Origin: Octopus vulgaris | Lineage: Eukaryota | Assembly: GCA_951406725.2 (NCBI GenBank) | Contig: OX597830.1 | Span: 54,498,001 to 54,562,000, forward strand | DNA length: 64,000 nt | Direction: 5' to 3' | Shown: in pieces, positions 5,048 to 44,539 of the stretch | How positions within the stretch are numbered: the first letter of the stretch is position 1 | Layout of the letters: every line of letters begins with the position of its first letter | Notes under the pieces: generated by a model | What the model was told of the DNA's origin: nothing | Databases searched by the model: none | Seen by the model: the letters and a program-made list of their open reading frames with translations, nothing else | Translations under genes and position numbers: made by a program

Positions 5048-5095
<48 letters not shown>

Positions 5096-5306
5096 GTTTC
5101 AAATTTTGTCACCAGGGCAGCAATTTTGAGGGAGGGGATGGGTCAGTTACATCGAACCCAGTACTCAAATGGTACTTAATCTATCAACCCCGAAAGGATG
5201 AAAGGTAAAGTTGACCTCGATGGAATTTGAACTCAGAATGTAGCAACAAGCATAATACTGCTAAGCATTTCACCCAGCATGCTAACGATTCTGCCAGCTC
5301 ACCATC

Positions 5307-5341
<35 letters not shown>

Positions 5342-6172
5342 CTTTTCTATTCTAGGCACGAGGCCCAAAATTTTAGGGGATGGGACCTGTTGATTAAATC
5401 AACTCCACTACACAACTGGTACTTAATTTATCGACCCCAAACGGATGAAAGGCGAAGTTGACCTCGGCGGAATTTGGACTCAGAACGTAAAAACAGATGC
5501 AATACCGCTAAGCATTTCACCCGGTGTGCTAACGTTTCTGCCTTTCTACTAAAGGCACATGCCCTAAAATTTTTGGGGAGGGGTCTAGTTGATTACATCG
5601 ACCCCAATGTTTCACTGGTACTTAATTTATCAACTCTGAAAGGATGAAAGGGAAAGTCGACCTCAACAGAATTTGTCCTCAAGATGCAAAGACAGATGAA
5701 GTATTGCTGAGTATTTCATCTGGTGTGCTAATTCTGCCAGCTCACTACCTTCAATGATAACAAATAATAATAATCCTTTCTACTATAGGTACAAAGCCTG
5801 AAATTTTGAGAGAAGTGGAATAGTCAATGACATCAAGTCGAGTGTTGCATTGGTATTTAATTTATCAGTCCTGAAATGATGAAAGGCAAAGTTGACCTTG
5901 GAAGAATTTGAACTCAGAATGTGAGGACAGGCAAAATACCTGTTTCTTTATTACCTACAAGGGGCTAAACATAGAGGGGACAAACAAGGACAGACAAACG
6001 GATTAAGTTGATTACATCGACTCCAGTGTGTAACTGGTACTTAATTTATCGACCCCAAAAGGATGAAAGGCAAAGTCGACTTTGGCGGATTTGAACTCAA
6101 AATGTAACAGCAGGCAAAATACCGCTAAGCATTTCGCCCAGTGTGCTAACGATTCTGCCAGCTTGCTGCCTT
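5048..6172 (-). mobile_element. Cluster of about 5-6 co-oriented SINE family B units separated by (AAT)n
   Basis: Repeated GGATGAAAGGCAAAGTCGACCTCGG...TTTGAACTCAGAA units. Similar chains at 14966-15735(+), 17225-17805(-) and 24585-24977(-). Confidence 0.88.
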
Positions 6173-6516: not shown

Positions 6517-7179
6517 CAGAAGAAGAAGAAGAAGAAGAAGAAGAAGAATCCTTTCTAATATAGGCACAAGGCTTATAATTCTGGAGAAGGGGTTAGTTGA
6601 TTACACTGATCCCAGTACTCAACTGGTACTTGATAATAATAATAATAAGAAGAACAATGCTTTCTAATTTTTTGGTATAAAGCCATTAATGAATTGAGGA
6701 AAGGGTAAGTAGTAGATACCATCAATTTGACCTGCACTATATCTTACCAAGCCTGGAGTGATGGCAGTTGGTACAAGCATGGTTGTGTGCTTTAAATTCA
6801 CCTCTGAAAGTCTCATGGTTTTGTGTTCAGTCTTATTGTGAAGGCTGACACTTTTGGGTCTGCTGTTATAAGCTTATATAGAGTTGAAGGACACCTGTAG
6901 GGTGGGCAGCAAACTTGAGGTCATCCTGGGTACCCTAGCTTCGCCACTGGGTGAAGAAACAGAGGTTTGTACCTTTCATTTGTTTCTTAACAGAAGAAAA
7001 AAACATGAGATGGCGTAGGAGTGGCTTGCTTGCCGAACCACATGGTTCCAGGTTCAATCCCACTGCATGGTACCTTGGACAAGTGTCTTCTACTATAGCC
7101 TCAGGCCAACCAAAACCTAATGAGTGGATTTGGTAGACGGAAACTGAAGGAAGCCCGTCGTATATATATATATATATAT

Positions 7180-7607
7180 TGTATATTTTTCCCTCACGGG
7201 CTATTCTTTACTGGAAAGCAATACTCTAGTATTGCATTACTAATTTATTGAAACTTCTTCACCGTTCTCGTGCTGTTAGCGTTTCGGCGTTTCAGTCGAG
7301 TGTAATGGCATTAATGTGGTAACATCTGAAAGGTTGTCGTGGTATATGTTTGGCTGATGAAGATAGATCAAGTTTATGGGTGGCAGACATATCTTGAAAA
7401 ATCTGAAACCTGCGCAGGTCCCACATTATCCTTTTCCAGGTATTTCATCTTTCAGATGTTCTCCCTGGAGGTAAGACAATTTTTTCTAGTTTGTTGCACA
7501 CACGCATTTTTGCTAGTACATACGCGGTGAAGCTATACATTAGCGTCGTATTATTACGTTCGCTATTTCCAGTAAATATCGGTACTTCGTTGTGCCATAT
7601 ATTTACT

Positions 7608-7612
<5 letters not shown>
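7180..7612 (+). mobile_element. Hammerhead-bearing non-coding insert (retrozyme / Penelope-like terminal repeat type) in the (TA)n tract of a SINE
   Basis: Unique ~430-nt segment flanked on both sides by (TA)n, splitting an otherwise colinear SINE. It contains the hammerhead and has no credible ORF. Confidence 0.65.
7346..7426 (+). ncRNA. Type I hammerhead ribozyme
   Basis: Core CTGATGA 7354-7360; stem II AGAT/ATCT extended by TCAAG/CTTGA and TATG/CATA; GAAA 7405-7408; stem III palindrome ACCTGCGCAGGT 7408-7419; GTC cleavage triplet 7418-7420; stem I ATG(TT)TGG/CCACAT. Confidence 0.85.
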
Positions 7613-7675
<63 letters not shown>

Positions 7676-15160: not shown

Positions 15161-15222
<62 letters not shown>

Positions 15223-15421
15223 GGCAGCAAGCTGGTTGAATTGTTAGCACACTGCTTAGCAATATTTTACCAGTTGCTCCATTCTGAGTTCAAATTCTGC
15301 CGAGGTTGACTTTACCTTTCATCCTTTCAGGGTCAATAAAATAAAATCAGTTGAACACTGGGGTTGATGTAATTGACTCATCCCCTCCCATAAAATTGCT
15401 ACCTTTGTGGCAAAATTTGAA

Positions 15422-15475
<54 letters not shown>

Positions 15476-15688
15476 TTTAAGGTAGCGAGCTGGCAGAATC
15501 CTTAGCATGCTAGGCATAATGCTTAGTGGCATTTTGTCCGTCTTTATGTTCTGGGTTCAAATTCCAATGGGGTTGTCTTTGCCTTTCATCCTTTTGCAAT
15601 CAATAAAAATAAGTACCAGTTGAGTACTGGGGGTCAATATAATCAACTTTTCCCTCCCCCAAAATTACTGGCCTTGTACCAAAATTTG

Positions 15689-15736
<48 letters not shown>

Positions 15737-17150: not shown

Positions 17151-18255
17151 AACACTACAGTTCCGACAACAGCGAAAGTGTACAGCAATAGTAGCACCAG
17201 CAGTTGTTGATTGACTCGTACTTTATACTCTTTTCTGCTCTAGTCACAAGGCCCGAAATTTTGGGGGAGGGAGCCAGTTGATTAGACCGATTAGAACTAG
17301 TGCTTAATTCATCAATCCCAAAAGGATGAAAGGCAAAGTCGACCTTGGTGGAATTTGAACTCATAACATAAAGACAGACAAAATACCTATTTCTTTACTG
17401 CCCACAAGGGGCTAAACACAGAAGGGACAAACAAGGACAGACAAATGGATTAAGTCGATTATATCGACCCCAGTGCATAACTGGTACTTATTTAATTGAC
17501 CCTGAAAGGATGAAAGGCAAAGTCGACCTCGGCGGAATTTGAACTCAGAATGTAGAGGCAGACAAAATACCTATTTCTTTATTACCCACAAGGGGCTAAA
17601 CATAGAGGGGACAAACAAGGACAGACATAGGTATTAAGTCGATTACATCGACCCCCAGTGCGTAACTGGTACTTAATTTATCAACCCCGAAAGGATGAAA
17701 GGCAAAGTCGACCTCGGCGGAATTTGAACTCAGAACGTAGAGACAGACAAAATACCACTAAGCATTTCACCCGGTGTGCTAATGTTTCTGCCATCTCGAC
17801 GCCTTACTTGAACTTTATATTATTAACCTGGCAGTGATGAAAGGCAAAGTTATCCTCATCAGGATTTGAACTCAGAATGTAAAGAGCTATCATGATTTCG
17901 CTGATGTGATCATCTATTTTTAGACTGACATTGTAGAGTAGGTGTGAAAGGCCAGGTCTGGCCACTTTTAAAACAGGTAGAATATTTAGACAAGATATAG
18001 CTAGTTTAAATACTGACAGGTTAATTCTTTTGATACCAATCACCTGATATTGTGAAACAGACTTCCTGCTTTGAAGTAACTGAAATTACAACTTTCCATC
18101 AAGATTTCATGTTAATTCATATTCTAAACACCAGATCAATAATGACAAGATTTATTAAACTAAATTCTTCATTGTGTTCAAAATTATTTAACACAATGGC
18201 AGTATATTTCAACAGAAATATGTTACGAAAAGTGTTAAATATTAATATATTTAAT

Positions 18256-29293: not shown

Positions 29294-30724
29294 CTAATTA
29301 TAGTTCACTGAAACAGTGAACAATCAGTGAATGCAGTTCATTGAATCAGTGAACAGCTGATTACTGCAGTTCATTGAAACAGTGAAGACTTGGTTATTGC
29401 TATTCATAATAACAGTGAACAGCTTAGCACAGTAGAAAAAGCAGCAGCAAGTGGAGACGCAATGGCCCAATGATTAGGGCAGCGGACTCAATTCCAAGCT
29501 TGTGTGTGTTTATCGAGTGAAAACACCTAAAGCTCCATGGGGCTCTGGCAGGGGGTGGTGGCGAACCCTATTGTACTCTTTCTCTCACTCTTTCTTCCTG
29601 TTTCTTGTCCCCGACTTCCTACGCAACCGCTGAGCCTGGACGCGCATTCATCCATCCGTCGATGCTCTCGGTGTCGGGGGGGGGGTTGACCTGCTCTCTC
29701 TTCTGTGGGTCTTACGAATAGCAAAGGACCACGTTTCGGACTTCTCTCACTACAGAAGACAGCTTTGCTCAACATCAACATCATCATCACAGCAACAGCA
29801 AAGAAATCTGGAACCATACAAGAACTGTGCCAAATAATGGCTAGAAACTACGCAATGATACTAAAGAACAAAACCAAAGTAAATTACATCAGTAATTCTG
29901 GTCTTTGTTGTTAAAGCCATATGATTGGTTCCATTGAAATTATTAAATTATTAACCCACAAAACCAACAACATGGTCGTTTGTAAATTAATCAGCAATGA
30001 GATTACATAACCAGACTCTAATACAAACAGTGGTGCTTTCAATGAATTCTTCATTTTTTATTTCATTTATTTACATCTTGGCTCAAGTGTTACCATTAAC
30101 CATTGTAAATGTTAGCAGTGGTGATGGTGGTAGTAGTAGTAGTAGTAGTAACAGCCACAGTAGCAGCTGTTTAAGAATTTGGACCTGGAGATCTCCATTT
30201 CCAGCGACTTCGAGGGCCACCTCCCAGTGGTGTCAGGCGTTAACGAAGAGCCCTCGGTTGTCAAGCGATGTTGGGCGGACAAACACAGACACACAAACAT
30301 ACACACGCACATATTATATACATACATACAACGGGCTTCTTTCAGCTGCTGTGATTTGAGTACTGAAACAATAGTTCTTACAGAGCAATGAGCGATTTAT
30401 GCTCTGTCTGTAACTGATGACGTATAACAAAGTAGAAACTAGTGTTTTATTGTCCGATGACGTCATTAATCAATTCCTTCTTGACAAATCTTTAACACGC
30501 TGCTAAGTGTACTTTTTATAGTTCACATATAAAAACGGCCGCTTTTTGTGAAGATGTTGCAGATCTTTTTAGTTCTAGATATCGTGATCATTTCTAGCAT
30601 ATGAATTAAGAATTTGCATTCTCTCGCCAAGAGCCGAAGTTCAGCCATACTTTGCGTGCGTGCGTACGTACGTACGTGCGTTCGTACGTACGTATGTACG
30701 TATGTATGTATGTATTCTATTCTA

Positions 30725-43330: not shown

Positions 43331-44539
43331 AACATACATACATACATACATACATACATACATACATACATACATACATACATACATTCATACATACATA
43401 CATACATACATACATACATACATACATACAAACATATATACATACATACATTCATACATACATACATACATACATACATACATACATACATACATACATA
43501 CATACATACATACATACATACATACATACATACGCATGCAAAGTATGGCTGAAATTGGGCTCTTGCCGAGAGAATGCAAATTCTTAATTAATATGCTACA
43601 AACGATCATGATATCTAGAACTAAAAAGATCTGCAACATCTTCACAAAAAGCAGCCGTTCTTGTATGTGAACTATAAAAAGTACCCTTACAAAAATGTCA
43701 AAGATTTGTCAAGACGGAATTGATTAATGACGTCATCGGACAATAACACACTAGTTTCTGCTTTGTTATACGTCATCAGTTACAGACAGAGCATAAATCG
43801 CTCATTACTCTGTAAGAGCTATTGTTTCAGTACTCAAATCACAGCAGCTGTGATATACAGATAAATCTGCCGGCAGAGGAAGTGCCTGTGGCCTCGAAAG
43901 GTTCTCTCAGACTAGGGATATTAATGTGGTTGATGTTCAAGTTGAACATATGTAAGTCTATGATATCGGGTGAAACATTGGATGGTGAAAGAATGGCGTG
44001 GAACGACTGGAATTGTAGTTGGTGCAGAAGCCTACACTGGATTCCATTATGGGTGACAAGAAGCGGAGAGATTAGTATATTGGATGGGTTTGAGTAGAAG
44101 TAGTATGCAGTCTAGCTACATCTGAGAGGCAGAGGCCGTTGTAGTAGTGGTGGAATAGGCGGAGAGTGGTCACAGCGTGACTGTGTGGGCTAGAGATTGG
44201 ACTGTGTTGCTGGCGAATGAATGTTTGCCACTGTGTCAGATGTTATCGTGTGTGCATATACATACATACATACATACATACATACAAACAAACATACATA
44301 CATACAAACATACATACATACATACATACATACATACATACATACATACATACATACATACATACATACATACATACAAAAGTACCCTGTTGTTGATGTT
44401 GAAATTCCAATGAAACCGGTTCTTTCTCTATTGCCAAGAAATCTTGAAATAAAGCTGAATAATGACATACATATCAGCAAAAAGTTATGCCTGGGCATAT
44501 ATATATATATATATATATATATGCAAGCTAGAAGATATC

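Follow-up and report, generated by a model that had tools for sequence, protein, structure and literature searches.

A preliminary description of a stretch of Octopus vulgaris DNA (64,000 nucleotides of contig OX597830.1; the window) reported an insert of about 430 nt at positions 7180–7612, said to fold as a strictly nested rod with a self-cleaving ribozyme at its tip. What kind of element is this insert, and how did it reach its present site? Our analysis makes it highly probable that the insert is a unit of a multicopy, protein-less hammerhead repeat with a conserved branched fold, and that it is likely a non-LTR retrozyme which the reverse transcriptase (RT) and endonuclease of a Penelope-like element (PLE) copied into (TA)n.

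The Insert Is One Complete Unit of a Noncoding Repeat

The region around 7180–7612 is AT-rich, microsatellite-rich animal genome DNA. A genome search with the unit gave 113 matches of 97–99% identity among the best 40 of 1,516 candidates, and paralogues in these matches join unit position 432 to position 1 head to tail. One complete monomer of 432 nt thus spans 7180–7611 on the + strand; the reported extent was right to within one nucleotide, position 7612 already being the start of the TA tract. The window copy is exactly one unit with a single hammerhead, and because of this it could not release a unit-length RNA by itself. When the unit was tripled, its longest stop-free frame was 84 codons and its longest ATG frame 57 codons. 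The unit is a noncoding, protein-less repeat, as had been proposed.

The insert splits a TA tract that belongs to a SINE-like repeat of very high abundance. The left part of the tract (7160–7179) lies within that repeat (about 7030–7160); beyond the right part (7612–7665), the host repeat resumes and runs to about 7890. The ends of the copy abut TA repeats, and a paralogous SINE has the tract unbroken, which bears out the earlier idea of a retroelement inserting into (TA)n. We looked for a target-site duplication of >4 bp; any such duplication would be hidden because both flanks are TA repeats. Elsewhere in the window, a SINE-like repeat forms short tandem arrays with a period of 184–267 bp (5061–5731, 15164–15736, and 17295–17756) and is also present near 6000–6150.

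The family is large. An 18-mer starting at 7566 has 1,297 exact genomic matches (controls, 0–1), a number that counts arms, not insertions. Genome motif counts allowing at most one mismatch gave 274 young-type and 155 older-type ribozyme cores. We recovered an older subfamily (79% identity for the first copy found; the subfamilies are about 80% alike) and a third lineage, about 90% identical (e.g., loci L181 and L243–L261). Contigs from sequencing runs of four other organisms contain this stretch, with related copies in the three examined. The unit is also covered by contigs from putative RNA runs, and some of these contigs span the 432-to-1 junction; they are uninformative on circles or expression because the same junction is present in genomic DNA. 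One contig type resembles the third lineage yet differs across the ribozyme region (7362–7432), and its depth is comparatively high in runs X1, X2, and X12 (guessed RNA).

Rare variants show no A>G excess of the kind that A-to-I editing would imprint. The third lineage has 8 A>G changes at 103 A against 3–4 T>C changes at 161 T (P 0.03–0.07), a comparison picked after looking. Several of its derived A>G changes turn A-U into G-U. These changes could be fixed A-to-I edits, a statistically weak reading that we do not claim.

The class of non-LTR retrozymes has been described (PMC7229834), and the insert family is a new sequence family within the known animal members. A search of mostly open papers found no literature on a cephalopod retrozyme family; the present one may already be catalogued, for example in Repbase or Dfam.

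A Likely Type I Hammerhead Ribozyme

From its sequence, the unit likely carries a type I hammerhead (7346–7426, + strand) with predicted self-cleavage after position 7420. Its parts are stem I (7346–7353/7421–7426, with a 2-nt bulge), the core CUGAUGA (7354–7360), a long stem II (7361–7404), GAAA (7405–7408), and a palindromic stem III (7408–7419). The cut predicted after the GUC triplet (7418–7420; unit position 241) follows from established hammerhead geometry. The 13 core positions are identical in 50–55 of 55 copies, and all three stems show double changes. In the aligned full units, stem I has two (in 26/55 and 27/55) and stem II has three (in 27/55, 24/55, and 3/55); in stem III, 61 of about 145 segments have G-C in place of U-A, with the palindrome preserved. 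Both polarities were scanned, and the core was found on the + strand of the unit only. With either gathering or E-value thresholds, Rfam models detected no ribozyme in the unit, probably because they cannot accommodate the long stem II. Two other window sites, 30414–30438 (+) and 43755–43779 (−), gave near-identical 25-nt matches to a loose hammerhead pattern and are probably copies of another repeat.

The ribozyme differs between subfamilies. In older copies, stem I is a perfect 6-bp helix and the palindromic stem III is minimal, the form described as working as dimers in axolotl retrozymes (PMC7229834). Young copies have a bulged stem I, a longer stem III, and a ribozyme that is predicted to be self-masked. 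In per-copy ensembles, stem I is predicted to form in 23/27 older copies vs. 0/28 young copies, and the masking helices of the window copy's optimal fold are not retained by the older subfamily.

A Branched Fold of the Whole Unit

Folded as a linear RNA, 7180–7612 has a predicted energy of −125.7 kcal/mol, with z-scores against shuffles of −5.16 for the + strand and −3.18 for the − strand; as a circle, the values are −5.28 and −3.29. Both strands therefore beat their shuffles in both topologies, the + strand by more. Perfect helices of at least 11 bp number 2, vs. 0.022 expected from 1000 shuffles. All six complementarities listed in the preliminary description are present at their coordinates, but the strictly nested rod drawn from them does not hold: forcing all six costs about 11 kcal/mol, and the predicted ensemble is branched.

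Three of the six are strongly predicted on the circular RNA, namely 7207–7217/7566–7576 (mean pair probability 0.89), 7257–7264/7525–7532 (0.99), and the local hairpin at 7218–7235 (0.96). Two are not. The helix 7270–7280/7512–7519 has a probability of 0.002, with one pair broken in 42/55 copies and another in 28/55; the helix 7300–7308/7491–7499 has a probability of 0.0 and one pair broken in 47/55 copies. The last, 7321–7332/7449–7460, has a probability of 0.01, with its closing G-C in 4/55 copies, and survives at best as an alternative.

The supported fold is an interrupted backbone in which 7207–7217, 7257–7265, and 7301–7324 pair with 7492–7576. It is multibranched, with six side hairpins, and the hammerhead sits at its distal end, so that the ribozyme is indeed at the tip. 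The 11-bp basal helix (7207–7217 with 7566–7576, the 3′ arm beginning the abundant 18-mer) is nearly invariant, with 99% of alignment cells paired and no lineage-level change. Next to it lies the tail hairpin (7218–7235), part of a 69-nt tail, with a conserved stem and a variable loop. The backbone helix 7257–7265/7524–7532 has undergone, in the older subfamily, a double change from C-G to U-A (both changes are CpG-type), and the helices joining 7301–7324 to 7492–7520 carry double changes from A-U to G-C in the older subfamily and from C-G to U-A in the third lineage. Beside the ribozyme, a side hairpin (7435–7469) has C-G, U-G, and U-A at 7437/7467; it is incompatible with the helix 7321–7332/7449–7460.

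Selection on the Fold

For the backbone, we counted all 108 predicted pairs outside unit positions 160–255, setting one gap pair aside. Between the window copy and the older-subfamily majority, 17/108 pairs are touched; 12 are still paired and 5 are broken, vs. 10.3 broken pairs expected (P 0.0002), and 4 double changes stand against 0.51 expected (P 0.0005). Differences fall at 23/216 paired positions vs. 23/120 unpaired ones. The third lineage gave a weaker result: 11/19 touched pairs are kept, 7 are broken vs. 9.5 expected (P 0.03), and there are 2 double changes vs. 0.37 expected (P 0.04). An older copy folded by itself takes the same topology (z −9.67 for +, −7.44 for −). Per-copy ensembles support the backbone helices in 41–49 of 55 copies. 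The structure on which the aligned copies were scored for paired cells and double changes contains one pair added after inspection and leaves out the U-rich helix 7326–7338/7475–7489; that helix is poorly kept and is the source of most broken pairs. Conservation is highest at the pole opposite the ribozyme, where 2/29 and 3/31 positions differ vs. 31/96 in the ribozyme region.

Comparison of the aligned copies upheld the backbone, the hammerhead stems, and three of the helices first described, and spoke against those starting at 7270 and 7300; the covariation rests on three lineages and hence on few independent events, one double change being CpG-type. The compensatory changes on the + strand, in ribozyme and backbone alike, agree with the original suggestion of selection on RNA structure rather than a DNA inverted duplication. 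The alignments support selection on the + strand RNA structure well outside the ribozyme too.

Insertion Anatomy and Two Fixed 3′ Ends

We analyzed 145 sequence-distinct young-group insertions, selected by best match or by motif (for 40, by end B), some of which are probably assembly or segmental duplicates. Ninety-two are inverted, with two arms joined head to head. Among these, 80 have one end at site A and one at site B, 12 have one other end, and none has A+A or B+B. As defined by arm ends, site A is unit 424–432 and site B is unit 60–71. In the window copy, 3′ end A, a putative reverse-transcription start, corresponds to 7605–7611 (+) at the unit junction, beyond which TGTATA or TA repeats follow; 3′ end B, the second putative start, corresponds to 7240–7248 (+) at the end of the 69-nt tail, where paralogues continue into TA repeats (107 exact tail-to-TA junctions in the genome motif count). 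TA repeats lie within 30 nt of 163/184 ends of inverted insertions and of 47/48 single A or B ends. The 51 single arms end at A in 32 cases and at B in 16; 2 further insertions are complex. The same two ends are present in the older and third lineages.

The copies are 5′-truncated partial tandems with variable 5′ ends and 3′ ends fixed at two sites, and not, as had been considered, random circular permutations. Arms exceed one unit in 64/252 cases and hold two complete ribozymes in 5/252; the tandem at locus L246 reaches about 2.6 units. In 19 arms, as in the window copy, the 5′ end falls at unit 1–20. At the 40 loci picked by end B, 16/72 arms reach position 255, of which 5 stop at 236–255 and 11 pass. 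No clear 5′-end pile-up at the predicted cleavage site was seen at these loci, so cleaved linear monomers would not be the sole template, and the 11 of 16 arms that pass the site would need a circle or an uncleaved multimer. Rare variants are common to tandem units in 8 cases and to both inverted arms in 28, and the two full units at L246 have three changes in common. Eleven of these 36 cases, in L181, turned out to be marks of an unsampled subfamily, which leaves the shared-variant test suggestive of a single template.

Penelope-Like Elements as Candidate Partners

PLE copies are described as 5′-truncated and partially tandem, with an inverted 5′ copy, a tail at one end, and a (TA)n bias (PMC8557442). 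A purified PLE makes a nick in each strand and begins at two sites within the RNA, which define the tail, and uncleaved RNA was its main substrate in vitro (PMC11167929); multiunit arms would for that reason need no circle. The footprint of the present family (A+B inverted arms, tail, and TA ends) matches this anatomy. PMC7229834 proposed that non-LTR retrozymes depend on PLEs, and Li, Clavereau, and Pollet (2026; 10.64898/2026.07.22.740005) argued the case from homology.

The octopus genome has many GIY-YIG elements: a first look gave 6,136 candidates, of which 44 loci were examined. A young, abundant PLE among them encodes a 765-aa ORF with an RT, a CX4CXXC linker, and, at its C terminus, a GIY-YIG domain (loci L091–L099; e.g., L095:1754–5080). 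It ends in (TA)n, with an extra 35-nt hairpin tail in 2/9 copies, and is a candidate, only that, for the partner of the retrozyme unit. By blastn, the unit has no similarity to any of the 44 GIY-YIG-bearing loci, the 765-aa element included, nor thereby to an autonomous-PLE terminus that would mark it as a nonautonomous PLE. Of the loci that we screened with tblastn, none has PLE coding sequence joined directly to a retrozyme arm; the closest adjacency, at locus L142, has a 240-bp spacer. With a sample of 44 loci, the missing match lowers the probability that the unit derives from a known PLE, not that a PLE moves it. The 765-aa element also has a possible hammerhead variant about 60 nt before its end, with U3/A8, a palindromic stem III, and an unconvincing stem I. 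At L069 and L126, another GIY-YIG element lies between two inverted hammerhead-like motifs with palindromic stem III.

Comparison with Known Elements

By its testable features, the family matches the metazoan non-LTR retrozymes and is neither a viroid nor a plant LTR retrozyme. Hammerhead viroids have ribozymes in both polarities and no DNA phase. Like those of the Avsunviroidae, the octopus unit is small, structured, and hammerhead-bearing, with a ribozyme predicted to be masked in the young subfamily; unlike them, it has a ribozyme in one polarity, of type I and not type III, and over a thousand genomic arms. The viroid-like character first suggested for it gives way to the multibranched fold, the single polarity, and the genomic copies. 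Plant LTR retrozymes carry a type III hammerhead in their LTRs, a PBS and PPT, and a 4-bp target-site duplication; the family here differs in its type I topology and has no LTR pair.

Metazoan non-LTR retrozyme units are given as 220–245 bp in coral, 350–390 bp in mussel, and 330–350 bp in axolotl (Cervera and de la Pena 2020; PMC7229834). As described there, they share with the octopus family a short noncoding AT-rich unit, a type I hammerhead (here a core and three stems with compensatory changes), tandem copies (here the 432-to-1 junctions and the 5/252 arms with two ribozymes, the window copy being monomeric), a highly self-paired predicted fold, coexisting PLEs (their proposed mobilizer), and a short palindromic stem III suited to dimers, here in the older subfamily. 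In contrast to that description, the present unit is 432 nt of new sequence, and the family is dispersed, mostly of fewer than two units, and TA-targeted, with two fixed 3′ ends, inverted arms, and a very long stem II. The whole-unit fold was tested here by covariation, whereas the folds given in PMC7229834 are energy predictions; conversely, cleavage and circles were demonstrated for those retrozymes and are, for the octopus family, predicted and plausible, respectively.

The retrozymes of Li et al. (10.64898/2026.07.22.740005), with units of 51–972 bp, likewise include dispersed monomers for which PLE dependence was concluded. Their evidence, as presented, is co-occurrence and homology to pseudo-LTRs (pLTRs) in vertebrates; ours is insertion anatomy, with no pLTR homologue found. 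They report cleavage in only 1/9 constructs, which counsels caution for the unit here. With PLEs of the Neptune/Naiad type (PMC8557442) and the Anolis Poseidon PAc (PMC11167929), the family shares the 5′ truncation and partial tandems, the inverted 5′ copy, the tail at one end, and the (TA)n bias; two RT starts with double nicking are described there and inferred here. The octopus unit differs in having no ORF and a tail of about 63–69 nt vs. 30–40 in the described PLEs. Its putative starts A and B lie at TA-like microhomologies, whereas the PAc starts are reported as not homologous to the cut DNA (PMC11167929).

A Proposed Mechanism and Its Alternatives

We propose that a rare locus with two tandem ribozymes would be transcribed, that self-cleavage after unit position 241 would free a 432-nt monomer, and that the backbone would hold the monomer ends together for ligation into a circle. 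Retrozymes of coral, mussel, and axolotl have been shown to be ligated into circles (PMC7229834). A Penelope-type enzyme would then bind the conserved basal helix and tail hairpin at the pole opposite the ribozyme and nick both strands of a TA tract, and reverse transcription would start from A on one strand and from B on the other. Synthesis would end at random, at times beyond one lap, and the two cDNAs would join head to head. The window copy would be a product with a single arm, ending at A, whose synthesis halted after exactly one unit. By analogy with these systems, a circular RNA intermediate, already raised in the preliminary description, is plausible, and we lean toward a circle as template or intermediate. 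More tentatively, and with doubt prevailing, one may picture a circular RNA machine with two poles. The hammerhead would occupy one of them, and the nearly invariant basal helix and tail hairpin at the other would dock a PLE RT dimer, with one start per nicked strand, so that one circle would template both arms by rolling-circle reverse transcription; between subfamilies, the ribozyme would have exchanged an open form, working only as a dimer, for a self-masked one with a longer stem III.

The same element might do without a circle, its template being an uncleaved linear multimer from tandem loci and its ribozyme merely trimming RNA ends. Tandem loci with two or more ribozymes do exist, unprocessed RNA was used by a PLE in vitro (PMC11167929), and the ribozyme is predicted to be masked in young copies; yet the variants shared by successive units and by both arms (8 tandem and 28 inverted cases, less those 11 subfamily marks), the three changes common to the full units of L246, the strong structural selection on the ribozyme, and the accumulation of tested animal retrozymes as circles (PMC7229834) make this rather unlikely. 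We also consider it unlikely that the unit originated as a pseudo-LTR detached from an unsampled autonomous PLE, with a fold inherited rather than adapted to circular life. Such an origin of retrozymes was proposed by Li et al., with 24/57 Xenopus retrozyme families matching PLE termini (10.64898/2026.07.22.740005), the octopus ends act like PLE ends, and only 44 of the 6,136 GIY-YIG candidates were examined. Against it stand the lack of similarity to those 44 loci, the lack of PLE coding sequence abutting an arm in the loci screened, and the compensatory changes, which arose inside protein-less lineages. An RNA that switches between two folds, one with the rod-like helix 7321–7332/7449–7460 closing the ribozyme domain, is quite improbable. 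That helix stays 89.7% paired in 55 copies, RNAalifold preferred 10 bp of it over the 7435–7469 hairpin, and in the window copy it lies only 3.4 kcal/mol above the optimum; but it has no double change, its probability exceeds 0.5 in 3/55 copies, the third lineage breaks 3/4 of its affected pairs, and its arms are conserved anyway through other helices.

Two further readings would remove the element from the retrozymes. An endogenized viroid-like replicon, copied from RNA to RNA, would fit the size, the folding z-scores, and the hammerhead, and mussel retrozyme circles are reported not to match genomic copies exactly (PMC7229834). The core in one polarity only, with no other ribozyme found by Rfam, the branched fold, and the successive genomic subfamilies with a retrotransposition footprint render this very improbable. 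A foldback or MITE-like DNA element, with inverted repeats that would only mimic RNA structure, could account for the minus strand also folding better than shuffles. The unit has no terminal inverted repeats, however; its copies are randomly truncated at the 5′ end, its G-U-tolerant changes occur specifically on the + strand, and its catalytic core is conserved. The covariation in 55 copies, backbone pair counts, core conservation, and insertion anatomy refute this reading, and we give it next to no weight.

Implications

A retrozyme copied into (TA)n by a PLE enzyme thus remains our preferred reading. The way in which animal retrozymes move has so far been a matter of proposals, and this family supplies material for a direct test: the published in vitro PLE assay could ask whether ribozyme RNA is copied by a Penelope-type enzyme, whether the conserved pole is needed, and whether the template is a circle or a linear multimer. 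What is new here is a covariation-supported structure for an entire retrozyme unit, together with two precisely mapped putative start sites. The alignments point to selection on RNA structure far outside the ribozyme in a selfish, noncoding element.
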